This document shows positions 8,777 to 23,121 of a stretch of DNA of 64,000 bases, in pieces. The notes under the pieces are model-generated. The model was given only the letters and a program-made list of their open reading frames with translations, was not told the origin of the DNA and searched no databases. The first letter of the stretch is position 1. Every line of letters starts with the position of its first letter. Source of the DNA: Xanthobacteraceae bacterium (GTDB lineage: Bacteria > Pseudomonadota > Alphaproteobacteria > Rhizobiales > Xanthobacteraceae); NCBI GenBank assembly GCA_049512975.1, contig JBEKWO010000005.1, positions 22,073 to 86,072 of the forward strand, read 5' to 3'. Made by a program: the position numbers and the translations under genes.

Positions 8777-9277
8777 TTACGCCTCGCCGGATGTCTCGAA
8801 CATGGCGGAGTCCATGGCTTCGCGCGCGGATTTGCCCGCCCAAACGACGAACTGGAACGCCGGATAATAGCGTTCACACGCGTCGAGCGCGGCGCCGAAC
8901 ACCGCCTCGCACTGCCGGCCCGAAGCGGCGACGCCGCCTGGCAGCAGCAGCGCATGGCGGAACATCACCACGCCGTTCTGCATCCAGACGTCGAAATGCC
9001 CGACCCACAATTGCTCGTTGATCAGCGCGACGAGCTGCTGCACCTCGGACAGCCGCGGCTCCGGCACGCGCATGTCGAAGGCGCAGGCCAGATGCAGCGC
9101 TTCGATCTCGCTCATCCAGGTGAATGAAATCTGATAATCGGTCCATCGGCCGGTGACGACGATCGAGATTTCGTCCTCGCCGGCGCGTTCGAACGGCCAG
9201 TTGTGGCCGGCCGCCATGTGCTCGACCACGTCGAGGGGATTGGCGGCCGGGTCTCGCGCGATTTCGATAATGGACAT
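8777..9277 (-). CDS. YbjN-domain protein
   Basis: MSIIEIARDPAANPLDVVEHMAAGHNWPFERAGEDEISIVVTGRWTDYQISFTW.... This has a YbjN-like layout and lies upstream of proC. The family assignment is from memory. Confidence 0.6.
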   Translation of the reverse strand: MSIIEIARDPAANPLDVVEHMAAGHNWPFERAGEDEISIVVTGRWTDYQISFTWMSEIEALHLACAFDMRVPEPRLSEVQQLVALINEQLWVGHFDVWMQNGVVMFRHALLLPGGVAASGRQCEAVFGAALDACERYYPAFQFVVWAGKSAREAMDSAMFETSGEA

Positions 9278-9693
9278 GCCGCCTCCACAGCGCCGCTCGA
9301 GTGGAAATGCGCACGCCACTGAACATTGCCGATAGCCGGGCTGCGATTTGACGCAGGACAACTCGCCCGGCGGCTTGACTGAACGTCGCGAATCACTCGG
9401 CGCACCGACTATAGAACGCGCGATTCCTTCCAACAAAACCGGCGCTGGAGCTGTCCGGCGCGCGGCTCGTACCGGCACTCATGAAGTGATTTGCCGCCGC
9501 GGCACAAGCGGGAAGACAGGCCGTCCACAGACCAGTCTGCGACAGTTTGACTCGGGGGTAGGGTGGGGGCGGCGGAAGCGGCCTTGAGGGCCTGGATTGA
9601 ACTAGACGTAACTCATTGAAATGACTCGTTCCCGTCTCGCGAAGCGGCAAGACAGAGTCAGTTCAATGGGTTGGCTCCAATTGAATACGGCCG

Positions 9694-10650
9694 CTAGTCG
9701 AAGAACAGGCTCGATACCGACTCGGCACCGGCGATCCGGTTGATCGCCTCCCCGATCAGCGTCGCGATCGGCAGCACCCGGATGTTGCGGGAGGCGGTGA
9801 CCGCCTCGGTGGGTTGGATCGAGTCGGTAATCACCAGTTCCTTGAGGTTGGAATTATTCACCCGGGCGACTGCCCCGCCCGACAGCACGCCGTGACTGAT
9901 ATAGGCGTAGACTGCGCTGGCGCCCTTTTCCAGCAAGGCGTCGGCGGCGTTGAGCAGCGTGCCGCCGGAATCCACGATATCGTCGACCAGGATGCAGATG
10001 CCGCCGTCCACCTCGCCGATGACGTTGGCCACCTCGGACTCGCCCGGCCGCTCGCGCCGCTTGTCGACGATGGCGAGCGGCGCATTGATGCGCTTGGCGA
10101 GGCCGCGGGCGCGCACCACGCCGCCGACGTCGGGCGACACCACGATGACCTTGGCGAGATCGAAGCGCTGTTTGATGTCCCGTACCATGACCGGCGAGGC
10201 AAACAGGTTGTCGGTGGGGATATCGAAGAAGCCCTGAATCTGTCCGGCGTGCAGATCGAGCGTCAGCACGCGGTCGGCGCCGGCGCGGGTAATCAGGTTG
10301 GAGACCAGCTTGGCGGAAATCGGCGTGCGCGGGCCGGGTTTGCGATCCTGCCGGGCGTAGCCGAAATAGGGGATCACCGCGGTGATGCGCTGTGCCGAGG
10401 CGCGGCGCAGCGCGTCGATGATGATGAGCAATTCCATCAGGTGGTCGTTGGCCGGGTATGACGTCGACTGAATGGCAAAAACGTCGGCGCCGCGCACGTT
10501 CTCCTGGATTTCGACAAAAATCTCCATGTCGGCGAAACGGCGCACCACCGCCTTGGTCAACGGGATGCCGGTATAGGCGCCGATCCCCTCGGCCAGCACA
10601 GGATTCGAGTTGCCGGCGATGAGCTTGATGGCTCCGTTGTTGCTCGCCAT
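9694..10650 (-). CDS. prs: ribose-phosphate pyrophosphokinase
   Basis: [21 protein letters not shown]...[10 protein letters not shown]...[11 protein letters not shown]...[13 protein letters not shown]. These are the canonical PRPP synthetase motifs. Start is at the ATG at 10650. Confidence 0.93.
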
Positions 10651-18939: not shown

Positions 18940-18981
18940 TGGTGGAGCCAGGGGAGTCGAACCCCCGACCTCTTGAATGCC
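18940..18981 (-). repeat. direct repeat of the 3' half of tRNA-Ala(GGC) (att-like islet boundary)
   Basis: TGGTGGAGCCAGGGGAGTCGAACCCCCGACCTCTTGAATGCC equals 23046-23088 except for one fewer G in a G-run. It has the same orientation as the intact tRNA. Confidence 0.85.
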
Positions 18982-19406
18982 CATTTTAAGGGTGGCTAAT
19001 TCCTGCTGCTTCCTCAACCTTCCTAGATATTTCAATAAATCCCTTGGAATGGGCATTTTTCAGCGTAATTGGCTCCCTTGATCAGTGCGCCGCTGGAGAT
19101 GGCTGCCTAGGAGGAGGCAGCGCGATCAGTGCTAATCGGGCAAGCCTTGTGCTCGCAAAGTCCCGCGCTAGGCGCGTGACCAGACGGCCGGCCTCCTCCG
19201 CATTGATCATGAGCAGCTTGATGATATCCTGCACGGTGCATCATGGTCAGGATCGAAGTCAGTGACCATAGCGCCAGAATGGCACGAGTGGCCCTGCTTC
19301 ACAGGCAGCGCCGAAACTTATCGATCGCACTGGGCAATCGAGATTTGTGGGTCAGGGCCGTCATGCAACCTCCATCGTTCCCTGAAATCCGCAATGCTTG
19401 AGAAGG

Positions 19407-20558
19407 ATGTCAGCAGGTGTTAACTGCATATGGTCGGCTGCAGTGAAGCTGAACTTTTTCCGTCGACGGCGTCTGCCAGCGAAATATGCGGCTCTTAACT
19501 ACTTCGGGACAAACAATCTCGGGGACGAAATTCAAACGATTGCGGCCTTGCGGTTTCTGCCGCGCGTCGATGCATGGGCGGATCGCGACCAGTTGAGTGC
19601 TTTTTTATCGGATACAACCCACAAAATCATTTTGAACGGATGGTTTCTTCGCCGGCCAGAGCATTGGCCGCCCTCTCGATGTCTTCATCCCCTGATTGTT
19701 TCGTTCCATCTGACACGCCGAGTTTCGGACTTGAATTTCAGCAAGGTCGCGCCAAGCTCGACGGTTCTTGGCCCAAAGGGGATCAGATATCTCAAAAATC
19801 ATGAACCCATCGGCGCGCGCGACCTGGACACTCTTGAGCAACTTCGAGCAGCGGGCGTGCGCGCGTACTTTTCGGGCTGCCTGACTCTGACTTTGCGTGC
19901 ACCACATTCTCCCCGCCGGGGCGAGATCTATGCCGTCGACGTTTCAGATGAGGTTTTTGCATTTCTTGCCTGCCACAGCGATGTCCCAATCACCCGGCTG
20001 ACGCACGCTGACCATGATCTGACCGGTCAAGCTCGCTTCGATAGGGCGGCATGGCTGCTTGCGCACTATTCTTCGGCCAAAGCTGTTGTGACCGGAAGGT
20101 TGCACTGTGCGCTTCCCTGCCTGGCACTGGGCACGCCAGTTTTGTTCGTCGAATCGGCTGACGATCCGTATCGTTTTCATGGCCTGAGAGATTGGCTAAG
20201 GCACGTTTCGGAGCCGCAGCTTCTCGAGGGTCGATACCAATTCGACCTGCGCTCGCCAACGCCGAACGGCAATGATTGGTGCGTCTTGCGTGATCAACTC
20301 GAGGAGAGATCAGATCGGCGAGTTGAAACTCGAGCTGTCTTTCGTTTGATGGTTTCCCTCCGTTTGAGTATGGCCGGGCCTCGGCGTCCGAAAGCTTGCG
20401 GGCCGGCGGTCGCCCTGAGGTATTCGAAACTCCATGCCCTCCACATTCGACCCAACGACCCATTTGCCTTCGCAGCTCGCGCTCGAGCCGCAATCCGATA
20501 CCCGACACACGGCGGTGCTTGCCAGACCCGGCAGGCAGCCCGTCGGTATCTCGTTTGA
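19407..20558 (+). CDS. polysaccharide pyruvyl transferase family protein (start uncertain: TTG 19398, ATG 19407 or GTG 19443)
   Basis: Motifs NYFGTNNLGDEIQ, IGARDLDTLEQLRAAGV, FSGCLTL and VVTGRLHCALPCLALGTPVLFVES match the PS_pyruv_trans family as I remember it. GC is about 52% by hand count. The last 40 or so codons are Arg-rich and overlap the next gene. Confidence 0.72.
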   Translation: MSAGVNCIWSAAVKLNFFRRRRLPAKYAALNYFGTNNLGDEIQTIAALRFLPRVDAWADRDQLSAFLSDTTHKIILNGWFLRRPEHWPPSRCLHPLIVSFHLTRRVSDLNFSKVAPSSTVLGPKGIRYLKNHEPIGARDLDTLEQLRAAGVRAYFSGCLTLTLRAPHSPRRGEIYAVDVSDEVFAFLACHSDVPITRLTHADHDLTGQARFDRAAWLLAHYSSAKAVVTGRLHCALPCLALGTPVLFVESADDPYRFHGLRDWLRHVSEPQLLEGRYQFDLRSPTPNGNDWCVLRDQLEERSDRRVETRAVFRLMVSLRLSMAGPRRPKACGPAVALRYSKLHALHIRPNDPFAFAARARAAIRYPTHGGACQTRQAARRYLV

Positions 20559-21609
20559 GAGTCTCGGGCGACGCCTAGAGACGTCTGAGCATCTCGATGG
20601 TTTCATTGCCGTGTTGCTGCCCGCGCTTCTCCGCGCCGATGGCGCCGTGCATGTCGCGGGCACACTGACGCGGGAAATCGTGCGAAATCTGATCGACGCC
20701 AGTGAAGGCTGGGAAAATTGGAATGTCGATCACTACCGTGCCCTGCGCATCAGCGCAGACTGCATCATCGATCCGCCGGTGCCAACGTTGTCCCCGCGAG
20801 CGGCTTTCGCCTGGTCGGGTAGTTTGAGATCTACTCATACCCTCGTGCGCCATTACGCCCGCAGCGTGCCGGGAGCGGTTCAGGTTGCTCGGATTGTTCA
20901 CGTTATCGGCCTGCAGGGTGACGCGCGAACGGTCTCTACCGATGCGATTGCGGCTGAAGTGAACAAGCATGCCGAACGACTCGGCGCGACAGCCGAATGC
21001 GTGGTGACGAACGCGCATGAGGTCGGTCTCGTCGAAACCGAGATGGGCGTGTTGCCAGTGATTGCGGCAGCGCTGCATCTCACCGCCACGGACCTGAAGC
21101 TCGGCTTTCACGCTCGACGATGGCCTTTCTCGGCACAGCTTCGTTACCCGAGGCCAGAACCCGCATTTCCCGATGTATTCTGCGGTTCTCGAATGCTGAT
21201 ACGTGCTGATGGCGGGGCGACAACCCCGACGCAGATGGTGCGCGAGGTTCGCGAGCATGCTCCGTTTCTGCTGGCTGCCATCAGCGGCTGCAGCGAGCGA
21301 CCTCGCTTCACTTCTCCCTGCGGAGCCTGCTCGGGCTGCATCATCACGTCGCTCGCATTCGCGGCCGCCGGCACCTCTCACCATGCTTTGCCCCCGCCAA
21401 CCGCATTTGAGGTTGCGCGGCTGCAGTGGAGCGATCCGATCGTCGCCGCGGAAGCAACCGAGATTGCTTCAGACTGGTCAACACCCGGATCGCGCTTACA
21501 TCTGGCACTTCGTCGCCGAGTCGAACGGGATCGCGCAAACGCCGCGAGCGTGGAAGTGCGCCGCTGGCTCGCCTCCGCCACCGGCCTGGGGCCCATCTGG
21601 CCACGCTGA
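20434..21609 (+). CDS. QueC-like PP-loop superfamily paralogue with a degenerate PP-loop (SGSLRS); unknown N-terminal domain
   Basis: 391 aa. It aligns by eye along its length with the next gene: AFAWSGSLRSTHTLVRH vs IAALSGGLDSTFTAVRH, VVTN vs VRTN, and GCSERPRFTSPCGACSGCIITSLAFAAAG vs VCWAGDDPGKNCGACEKCVMTRLNFLAAG. Confidence 0.6.
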   Translation: MPSTFDPTTHLPSQLALEPQSDTRHTAVLARPGRQPVGISFESLGRRLETSEHLDGFIAVLLPALLRADGAVHVAGTLTREIVRNLIDASEGWENWNVDHYRALRISADCIIDPPVPTLSPRAAFAWSGSLRSTHTLVRHYARSVPGAVQVARIVHVIGLQGDARTVSTDAIAAEVNKHAERLGATAECVVTNAHEVGLVETEMGVLPVIAAALHLTATDLKLGFHARRWPFSAQLRYPRPEPAFPDVFCGSRMLIRADGGATTPTQMVREVREHAPFLLAAISGCSERPRFTSPCGACSGCIITSLAFAAAGTSHHALPPPTAFEVARLQWSDPIVAAEATEIASDWSTPGSRLHLALRRRVERDRANAASVEVRRWLASATGLGPIWPR

Positions 21610-22826
21610 TGTCGCAACCCGTCCACATCTGGTTCGTGGAAGGTCAGGAGGGCGGCGAAGTCGTTCGCCGGCTCGTCTGCAAGGGCGTCGTGGGCCGCGG
21701 CGCGCCTCGTCTCGACCTGTGGTGGCGTATTCCGGGTATCGCTTCCCTCCCAACGCCGCCAGTACTCGACTCCCTGCTCGGGGGCCCGTTGCTCTGGGCA
21801 GCGATGTCGGACCAGGACGTCGTCGTGCACGGGCCGGTCAGCACCGGTGGCCTGTACAACCTGAGTCAGCTGATCGAAGTCCGTCAACGGCTCTCGCCCG
21901 AGCGCTACCCGCGCGTGATCGAAGTGCGTCCGGACAGTATCCTCGAAGTCGCGCGCGACGCTCATGAGCCGTCGAAGGCGATCGCTGCGTTGTCCGGCGG
22001 CCTAGACTCAACCTTCACCGCCGTACGGCATGGGCTCGGGCTGGCAGGCGAGGCCACGATCCCCATCGAGGCGATGGTGATGATCCATGGCTTCGACGCA
22101 TCGCTCGATCGCATGGATCAATTCGATGCGATGCGCCGCCGCGCCGAGCCGACGATAAAGCTGCTCGACGTTCCCTTTCATGTCGTGCGCACCAACAGCA
22201 AGCTGGACGGACGGACCTGGCCGCATTCCGCGATCCCGCTGACAGTGAGTGCTCTCTCGCATTTCGGCCATCTGGCGCCGATCGCCCTGGTCTCCTCCGG
22301 CGCACCGTACGGAATCCCACGGTTCGGCATTTCGCATCCTACGGCAGTCGAATCGCTAGCATCAGGCGACTGGTTCCGCGTGGTGACGGACGGGAGCGGA
22401 TTTGGCCGTACTGAAAAGGTGGAGATGTTGACGCCGTACCCGGCCGTGCTCGCTGCCGTCAAGGTCTGCTGGGCGGGCGACGACCCCGGTAAGAACTGCG
22501 GAGCGTGCGAAAAGTGCGTGATGACTCGCCTTAACTTCCTGGCGGCGGGTATCCGCGATGCACCCTGCTTCGACACGCCGCTGACTCCAGAACTGATCGC
22601 AGGCCTCTCCATGCCGTCGATGAACGCGGTACGCGACCTGTTCCGGACGTGCTGGAACGAGTTAGAGGCGCGCAATTGCAGCGGGCCGGAAGTCGACCTA
22701 CTGCGCAGGCGCCTGAGCCGTGTTCCGCCGGACGTTGTGGTCGAGTGGAGGAAGAAAACTCACGACAACATTGCGCGATGGCTGCCACGGTGGGTCAAGC
22801 AACTCATTAAACGCGCGCTCGCCTAG
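21609..22826 (+). CDS. QueC-like PP-loop ATP pyrophosphatase with an unknown ~125-aa N-terminal domain
   Basis: The ATG at 21609 overlaps the upstream TGA (TGATG). It has a canonical PP-loop AIAALSGGLDSTFTAV and a QueC-type Cys tetrad C-x9-C-x2-C-x2-C (VCWAGDDPGKNCGACEKC). Confidence 0.7.
   Translation: MSQPVHIWFVEGQEGGEVVRRLVCKGVVGRGAPRLDLWWRIPGIASLPTPPVLDSLLGGPLLWAAMSDQDVVVHGPVSTGGLYNLSQLIEVRQRLSPERYPRVIEVRPDSILEVARDAHEPSKAIAALSGGLDSTFTAVRHGLGLAGEATIPIEAMVMIHGFDASLDRMDQFDAMRRRAEPTIKLLDVPFHVVRTNSKLDGRTWPHSAIPLTVSALSHFGHLAPIALVSSGAPYGIPRFGISHPTAVESLASGDWFRVVTDGSGFGRTEKVEMLTPYPAVLAAVKVCWAGDDPGKNCGACEKCVMTRLNFLAAGIRDAPCFDTPLTPELIAGLSMPSMNAVRDLFRTCWNELEARNCSGPEVDLLRRRLSRVPPDVVVEWRKKTHDNIARWLPRWVKQLIKRALA

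Positions 22827-23045: not shown

Positions 23046-23121
<76 letters not shown>

Follow-up and report, generated by a model that had tools for sequence, protein, structure and literature searches.

Is a gene that has lost the ATP-binding loop of its catalytic neighbor a dedicated partner of that neighbor, and what would such a pair do? The question is raised by two consecutive genes in a stretch of 64,000 nucleotides (nt) of a Xanthobacteraceae genome (contig JBEKWO010000005.1; hereafter the window, whose positions are numbered from its first letter). Gene 3 (21609..22826, forward strand) codes for a protein of 405 amino acids (aa) with a canonical pyrophosphate-binding loop (PP-loop), predicted from its homologues, AlphaFold2 model, Foldseek matches and profile to be an active QatC-like/QueC-like PP-loop ATP pyrophosphatase. 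Gene 2 (20434..21609, forward strand, 391 aa), directly upstream, codes for a paralogue of this ATPase that appears catalytically degenerate in BLASTP, hhalign and AlphaFold2 comparisons, and both follow gene 1, an open reading frame (ORF) of the polysaccharide pyruvyl transferase family (PF04230). The original prediction, made from the sequence of the window, had proposed an obligate heteromer of an enzyme and a pseudo-enzyme or scaffold subunit. The reading that we favor, with a probability of about 60%, is that genes 2 and 3 code for an enzyme/pseudo-enzyme heteromer of QueC/QatC-like type, which would activate a glycan carboxylate together with a PF04230 partner; it is argued from sequence comparison and by analogy with known enzymes.

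Paralogy of the two proteins and loss of catalytic residues in gene 2

Genes 2 and 3 are true paralogues, with a similarity far above chance. The two proteins share 25% identity over 271 residues in BLASTP (E 8e-8), in an alignment that pairs AFA-WSGSLRSTHTLVRH with AIAALSGGLDSTFTAVRH and places the loops in the register drawn by eye in the original prediction. Family alignments of 29 relatives of gene 3 and 27 relatives of gene 2 match each other in hhalign with a probability of about 100% (E 3.9e-39, 345 columns) and an identical loop register. The AlphaFold2 models of gene 3 (pLDDT, or predicted local distance difference test, of 90.4; predicted template modeling score, pTM, 0.87) and gene 2 (pLDDT 88.2, pTM 0.88) have collinear secondary-structure elements, and the loop occupies the classical PP-loop position in each, between strand E124-127 and helix H132-142 in gene 3 and between strand E122-126 and helix H131-141 in gene 2. 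The SGSLRS segment of gene 2 is thus homologous to the PP-loop, on which pairwise, profile and predicted-structure comparisons agree. Both proteins also harbor a C-x9-C-x2-C-x2-C tetrad (CSERPRFTSPCGACSGC in gene 2, 21289..21339, and CWAGDDPGKNCGACEKC in gene 3, 22467..22517, both on the forward strand), which corresponds as a motif to the QueC-type four-Cys Zn site C-x(8-9)-C-x2-C-x2-C, as well as the motif pairs VVTN/VRTN and LAFAAAG/LNFLAAG. These features, the two loops and the overlap at base 21609 described below all lie where the original prediction had placed them. Judged by its sequence and predicted fold, gene 2 is a structural rather than a catalytic member of the PP-loop superfamily, sharing the fold and lacking the SGGxDS motif.

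The degeneration of gene 2 is conserved. Homologues of gene 2 (n=47) and gene 3 (n=77) come nearly all from metagenome contigs, on which both families co-occur. In gene 3, the canonical loop SGGLDS (residues 129-134; 21993..22010, forward strand) lies between the first strand and helix and its residues are invariant in the aligned family: S129, G131 and D133 are the same in all 29 members, and in the broader family nearly all loops read SGGLDS, apart from a few SAGLDS and SGGVDS. The relic loop of gene 2, WSGSLRST (residues 127-134; 20812..20835, forward strand), has Ser for the second Gly and Arg for the Asp. A census of 51 gene-2 orthologues, with identities down to about 36%, found the loop Asp in none: 47 have Arg, and Lys, His and Leu occur once each. 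The second Gly is retained, as SGGLRS, in 8 of these 51 proteins, and a gene-2-type partner from a sister clade (locus L026) has WQNDLDS at this place. The possibility raised with the original prediction that gene-2 homologues elsewhere keep a canonical SGGxDS can therefore be set aside, as 0/51 do so and the SGSLRS-type degeneration is maintained in homologous pairs.

The loss extends beyond the loop. All aligned members of the gene-3 family have D133, D163, R267 and N296, and 28/29 have K270 and K302. The joint alignment shows that the gene-2 family has replaced D133 by R, D163 by H, Q or R, R267 and N296 by P, K270 by an invariant M and K302 by G, with Gly, hydrophobic positions and usually the four Cys retained. 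The loss of all six polar residues together with retention of the Gly and Cys is a pseudo-enzyme signature. The original prediction had also noted that the Cys tetrad is kept; this holds for gene 2 of the window and fails as a rule for its family, since at least six orthologues lack it (P0122-P0124 and the partners in loci L004, L017 and L026). In the gene-3 family the tetrad (C287, C297, C300 and C303) is invariant.

At the same time, the gene-2 family has 40 invariant columns of its own across 27 sequences, including AAALH, H226-x-R228, P-R-P, R-A-D-G-G and a C-terminal W-P-R. The last of these (21598..21606 in the window, forward strand) terminates 51/53 family members, one other ending in YPR and the L026 partner in PWPR, and it lies on a tail that is unstructured in the AlphaFold2 model (pLDDT of about 50 in the last block). 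With so many invariant residues of its own, gene 2 is probably more than a passive scaffold. The sequence comparisons support a dead site that has been maintained for a long time. In a single genome, the loss of catalytic motifs in one of two adjacent paralogues would resemble early decay, and gene 2 could be taken for a recently decayed, functionless duplicate on its way to becoming a pseudogene. However, its ORF is intact, the same replacement recurs in orthologues down to about 36% identity alongside the 40 invariant positions, and its family is a single clade on a long branch, with sub-clades that parallel those of gene 3; we count this explanation as refuted. One orthologue of gene 2 (L015, 5816-6998) is split into two overlapping ORFs and annotated as a 228-aa protein (P0100), which reflects either a frameshift or an assembly error.

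A coupled gene pair across ten loci

The two genes overlap by a single base. Positions 21600-21611 read gccacgcTGATG, in which the TGA of gene 2 (21607-21609) and the ATG of gene 3 (21609-21611) have base 21609 in common, giving a TGATG stop/start overlap (21607..21611, forward strand) of the type associated with translational coupling. The start of gene 3 is placed at 21609 rather than at an upstream GTG at 21426 because 28 homologues have coincident N-termini at the equivalent Met. Nine further loci were read (L001, L003, L004, L015, L016, L017, L024, L025 and L026), making ten with the window. A gene-2-type gene lies directly 5' of a gene-3-type gene on the same strand in 9/9 of them, and of the nine junctions inspected as sequence, that of the window included, seven read TGATG, TAATG or ATGA. 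The genes of L016 are called with a 13-nt overlap, so that stop and start overlap in 8/10 loci; L004 and L026 have spacers of 5 nt and 10 nt, respectively. In L004, a third paralogue of canonical type (9194-10360; FSGGVDS, CxxCxxC) is present between gene 3 and the pyruvyl transferase gene, and the gene-2-type partner has WSGSLLS and has lost the Cys motif.

A quick, unrooted maximum-likelihood tree recovers the gene-2 family as a single long-branched clade (support 100) and the gene-3 family as one clade nested among canonical members, with corresponding sub-clades in the two. A direct origin of gene 2 by duplication of gene 3 was considered and is not established, as the gene-2 clade lies outside all canonical members in this tree. 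The analysis thereby adds to the original prediction a dedicated, monophyletic subfamily of dead partners, marked by WSGSLRST, RADGG and a C-terminal WPR, which in the loci examined always precedes members of one catalytic clade. It also adds a second, independent origin of a dead partner. Protein P0126 (778 aa) is a natural tandem fusion, with a degenerate N-terminal half (FGGGLDG, without the Cys motif) and a canonical C-terminal half (FSGGADS, CxxCxxC). Its halves are sisters in the tree (support 85), which points to an independent duplication in which the upstream copy is again the dead one. The linker of P0126 harbors W-T-P-R just ahead of the second domain. This position suggests that WPR may dock onto the partner and that a free carboxylate would not be needed.

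The enzyme/pseudo-enzyme pattern of the original prediction is therefore supported computationally by the conserved loss, gene order, overlap and fusion. Conserved coupling, the fusion and the matching sub-clades support a physical heteromer without proving it, and we infer such a complex from these sequence patterns.

A second explanation of these data is that genes 2 and 3 code for two independent active enzymes catalyzing successive steps, gene 2 having a remodeled nucleotide or phosphate site with Arg for Asp and binding, for example, a phosphorylated or carboxylated intermediate. The strong purifying selection on gene 2, with His, Arg and Asp among its invariant positions and a near-invariant WSGSLRST, would suit such an enzyme, and translational coupling is common for consecutive pathway enzymes too. 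However, none of the six polar residues of the catalytic family remains in gene 2, and its loop varies by sub-lineage (SGSLRS, SGGLRS, SGSLLS, SGSLHS, QNDLDS), as expected without catalytic constraint. Moreover, at least six gene-2 members do without the Zn site, and the superfamily consists mostly of canonical proteins, so that a second activity is not generally required. We consider two successive enzymes unlikely.

Relationship to QatC, QueC and other PP-loop systems

Gene 3 is predicted, from its sequence and model, to be the catalytic member of the pair and to belong to the PP-loop ATP pyrophosphatase superfamily (adenine nucleotide alpha-hydrolases). In profile comparison it shows weak matches to the PP-loops of GMP, NAD and tRNA-lysidine (TilS) synthetases. 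The top Foldseek matches of its model are 9y01_B (E 4.4e-7) and 9y02_B (E 1.5e-6), both QatC in the QatB-QatC complex, with a template modeling (TM) score of 0.44 over 351-371 columns; the better of the two spans 351 columns at a probability of 1.0. These are the sole significant fold matches of gene 3; NMN and NAD synthetases come next in the list, weakly. A search of PDB sequences with gene 3 as a single sequence found nothing, and PDB profile searches gave marginal PP-loop matches and a spurious repeat-protein match for gene 3 and nothing for gene 2.

Curated models do not claim the pair. Gene 3 scores below the cut-offs of PF06508 (QueC; 18.7 vs 22 bits, E 1.3e-3, in the Zn-motif region only), TIGR00364 (10.9 vs 150.3) and the QatC model NF041925 (10.8 vs 280 bits), and gene 2 has no Pfam, NCBIfam or PADLOC match. 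PADLOC gave no match for the genes of the cassette, nor did any NCBIfam model score above its cut-off. No MurL_N or MurL_epimerase_C match (MurL, PF26299 + PF26298) was found in genes 2 and 3 by a Pfam scan at E <= 1, and no NCBIfam or Pfam match to an N-acetyl sugar amidotransferase of the WbpG type at E <= 1. The family itself is abundant: an exhaustive profile search retrieved 8392 representatives at E <= 1e-3 and 2892 at E <= 1e-30, and in the best 148 the loop is almost always a canonical SGGxD[S/A/G]. By these sequence criteria the pair is part of a very large, uncurated family whose members are normally catalytic and stand alone. For example, a 1.9-Mb genome of the same class (G306; L019, L020 and L022) harbors four family paralogues, two of them in tandem; two have a clearly canonical SGGVDA, and the loop of the other two was missed by the motif pattern.

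QatC of the anti-phage system QatABCD (PDB 9y01/9y02) is the closest structural analogue of gene 3, at a TM-score of just 0.44. It has a QueC-type core of about 430 aa that is extended at both termini, and it forms a 1:1 complex with the product of a neighboring gene (PMC13279940). Gene 3 resembles it in length (about 400-430 aa), in its QueC-type Rossmann core, SGGxDS loop and four-Cys Zn site, and in its N- and C-terminal extensions. However, the QatC signature C(x)19CGxCxxRR (PMC13329287) is absent from gene 3 by reading, which has C-x9-CGxCxxC instead. Gene 3 has its own paralogue as partner, in contrast to the unrelated helical QatB, and no gene of the qatA (PF07693) or qatD (PF01026) type is found among the listed neighbors in the ten loci. 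With QueC (7-cyano-7-deazaguanine synthase, PF06508/TIGR00364) and Cap9, gene 3 shares the PP-loop and a C-terminal CxxCxxC Zn motif and would share ATP-dependent activation of a carboxylate. It differs from QueC by the absence, by reading, of the motifs YxQxHxxE, VPxRN and YPDC (PMC13329287), and by its length, which is double and includes an additional N-terminal domain of about 120 aa.

The likeness to QatC brings up a different role for gene 2, that of a protein substrate or carrier of gene 3, whose flexible, invariant C-terminal tail (G-x4-W-P-R-COOH) would reach into the active site of gene 3, where its terminal carboxylate would be adenylated and then amidated or conjugated, in parallel to QatB for QatC and the CD-NTase for Cap9. 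PP-loop enzymes activate carboxylates, the best structural match of gene 3 is QatC in complex with QatB, and the WPR end of 51/53 gene-2 proteins sits on an unstructured tail. Moreover, modification of a flexible protein terminus has been proposed or shown for QatC and Cap9 (PMC13279940, PMC13329287). Against this, QatB and the CD-NTase are modified at an N-terminal Gly, whereas the N-terminus of gene 2 is variable, and the W-T-P-R of P0126, admittedly in a separate lineage, is internal and needs no free carboxylate there. A substrate also need not be a full-length paralogue with the fold and Zn site, and no role would be left for the pyruvyl transferase. We regard a substrate role as improbable.

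In its logic, the closest analogue of the heteromer that we favor is Ctu1/Ctu2 (Ncs6/Ncs2), the eukaryotic cytosolic tRNA U34 thiolase, in which a catalytic PP-loop subunit is likewise joined by a non-catalytic paralogue. There, a PP-loop ATPase is paired with a paralogue that lacks the ligands of the catalytic cluster and keeps its Zn sites; the arrangement has been interpreted as a duplication of a homodimeric ancestor, NcsA, and both proteins are needed in vivo (PMC10067955). A conserved loss of catalytic residues in a paralogous partner, as in Ctu1/Ctu2, is what we find for gene 2. The two systems differ in that Ctu1/Ctu2 is of the TtuA/NcsA type, [4Fe-4S]-dependent, eukaryotic and active on tRNA, with unlinked genes, whereas the pair of the window is bacterial, translationally coupled and QueC/QatC-like, and has a single Cys tetrad and a linked pyruvyl transferase. 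The trypanosomatid prozymes of AdoMetDC and PRMT1, dead paralogues required for an active hetero-oligomer (PMC5201418; bioRxiv 10.1101/776112), are unrelated to the pair in fold and organism and illustrate the general paradigm of a pseudo-enzyme activator only.

Pyruvyl transferases, genomic setting and proposed function

Gene 1 (19398..20558, forward strand) matches PF04230 over residues 40-252 (E 5.1e-13), with a score of 50 bits that passes the Pfam gathering cut-off of 25.3, and falls below the NCBIfam equivalog cut-off for CsaB (10.8 vs 213.1). The final 125 nt of its ORF (20434-20558) lie within gene 2 in another frame, and its last 80 or so residues are rich in Arg and Ala and do not align with other PF04230 proteins. 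Both its start codon and its true C-terminus, which may be a real stop or a frameshift, are uncertain.

Pyruvyl transferase genes are a recurrent neighbor of the pair. Counting the window, 8/10 loci have a PF04230 gene adjacent to the pair, with varying order and orientation. In the window it lies upstream of the pair on the same strand. L003, L015, L024 and L025 have it downstream, also on the same strand, and so does L004, beyond the third paralogue. It is downstream in L016 too, there on the opposite strand, and in L001 it is found one gene further on. These transferases come from non-orthologous PF04230 subfamilies; for example, gene 1 is not orthologous to the PF04230 genes coding for 303-308 aa that follow the pair in L015, L024 and L025. 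The order in the window (pyruvyl transferase, gene 2, gene 3) was considered as a circular permutation of the order in relatives, an idea dropped on account of this non-orthology. In addition, the PP-loop domain is fused to PF04230 in a single chain in nine of ten long family representatives. Several loci have a polysaccharide context, with glycosyltransferases in L001, an initiating sugar transferase in L015 and Wzm/Wzt-type exporter genes in L025. Our literature searches returned nothing that links QueC-like or PP-loop proteins with pyruvyl transferases, and nothing on DUF6395.

In the window, genes 1-3 are the only genes of a 4.1-kb islet, on either side of which the 3' half of a tRNA-Ala(GGC) gene is found as a direct repeat (42/43 nt). 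The left border is the repeat itself (18940..18981, no strand), which matches 23046-23088, and the right border is the tRNA-Ala(GGC) identified by ARAGORN (23046..23121, reverse strand). No integrase is visible in the islet, and no other copy of the family was found in the host genome. None of five sampled genomes of the same genus has a match. Matches were obtained in 4/200 other sampled genomes of the same family, all weaker and none with the pair, and the gene-2 profile found an orthologue in 0/400 other sampled genomes of the phylum, among which one has canonical paralogues only. With this sporadic distribution and the tRNA-Ala islet, the cassette looks rare and horizontally acquired. In L026 (1-3667), the pair adjoins prophage genes (T7-type capsid, head-tail connector, S24 repressor-like peptidase), with no pyruvyl transferase in view.

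The setting could also be that of an anti-phage defense cassette of the QatC/Cap9 type, in which the PP-loop enzyme would modify a protein rather than tailor a glycan. The QatC-like fold of gene 3, the small islet at tRNA-Ala, the sporadic distribution (4/200 in the family, 0/5 in the genus, no pair in the 400 sampled genomes of the phylum) and the prophage neighborhood of one related pair all fit such a cassette. However, PADLOC has no match, gene 3 is far from the QatC model (10.8 bits against a cut-off of 280), no qatA, qatB, qatD or CD-NTase neighbor was seen in any locus, and glycan chemistry is the role suggested by the linkage and fusion to pyruvyl transferases and by the location in polysaccharide clusters. 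The two readings are compatible, since phage receptors could still be changed by a mobile module that modifies glycans; as an alternative to glycan tailoring, protein-modifying defense has a low probability in our view.

Under the heteromer reading, gene 3 would be the catalytic subunit, with an SGGLDS loop that binds ATP/Mg2+, and would adenylate an oxygen of the substrate, most likely of a carboxylate, after which a nucleophile (ammonia or an amine) would displace AMP. Gene 2 would be an ancient paralogue that retains the fold, has lost the ATP loop and the polar residues of the active site, and has gained conserved motifs not shared with gene 3; it would replace the second protomer and most likely contribute to binding or positioning of the substrate. 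The stop/start overlap would ensure coupled, near-equimolar synthesis of the two. A sugar gains a new carboxylate when a pyruvyl transferase acts on it. In the QueC branch, a carboxylate is activated by ATP and AMP is replaced by a nitrogen nucleophile, which is ammonia for QueC and a protein N-terminus for Cap9, with the same proposed for QatC (PMC13329287). Since enzymes of this branch activate carboxylates and the pyruvyl transferase makes one, we infer that the pair may act with the PF04230 enzyme in the ATP-dependent amidation or ligation of a pyruvate-ketal carboxylate on a cell-surface glycan.

Several observations weigh against this reading. The gene-2 model has no significant PDB match, its top Foldseek probabilities being 0.2 or lower. 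The gene-2 WSGSLRST is almost invariant and H215, H226, R228, D247, R257 and D259 are conserved, and gene 2 may bind a ligand or catalyze something else rather than be inert. L017 and L026 show the pair without an adjacent pyruvyl transferase, and in L001 the pair has, upstream and translationally coupled to it, a gene for a class-V aminotransferase/cysteine-desulfurase-like protein (PF00266; 5714-6856), an arrangement that would suit sulfur chemistry as an alternative. No pyruvate-ketal amide turned up in literature searches, and we know of none. The L001 PF00266 gene lies in a glycosyltransferase-rich cluster and may hint at a nucleophile donor, either of an amine or of sulfur.

A more detailed version of the heteromer reading is tentative, and we would sooner expect it to fail in some part than to hold as a whole. 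It would make the pair an obligate heterodimer of enzyme and pseudo-enzyme from an unnamed, very large QatC-like family. Once a PF04230 enzyme has put a pyruvate ketal in place, the heterodimer would adenylate the carboxylate of the ketal and turn it into an amide, a nitrile or an amine conjugate. The binding site for the glycan or lipid carrier would come from the dead subunit, and dead partners would have evolved at least twice independently.

Pyruvate ketals contribute to the charge of bacterial surface polymers and serve as anchoring and recognition signals. If the proposed function is true, ATP-dependent editing of the ketal carboxylate would add a new level to the tailoring of glycans and would bear on recognition by phages and by the immune system. 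The family counts thousands of representatives and has no Pfam or NCBIfam model, and the pair provides a clean experimental handle on it, one subunit being predicted to be active and the other to be dead but indispensable. If the heteromer reading is true, the pair would be a bacterial, operon-encoded counterpart of Ctu1/Ctu2, and PP-loop homodimers would have repeatedly become heterodimers of a catalytic and a non-catalytic subunit. Genes 2 and 3 probably code for a two-subunit enzyme that makes an undescribed modification of surface sugars.

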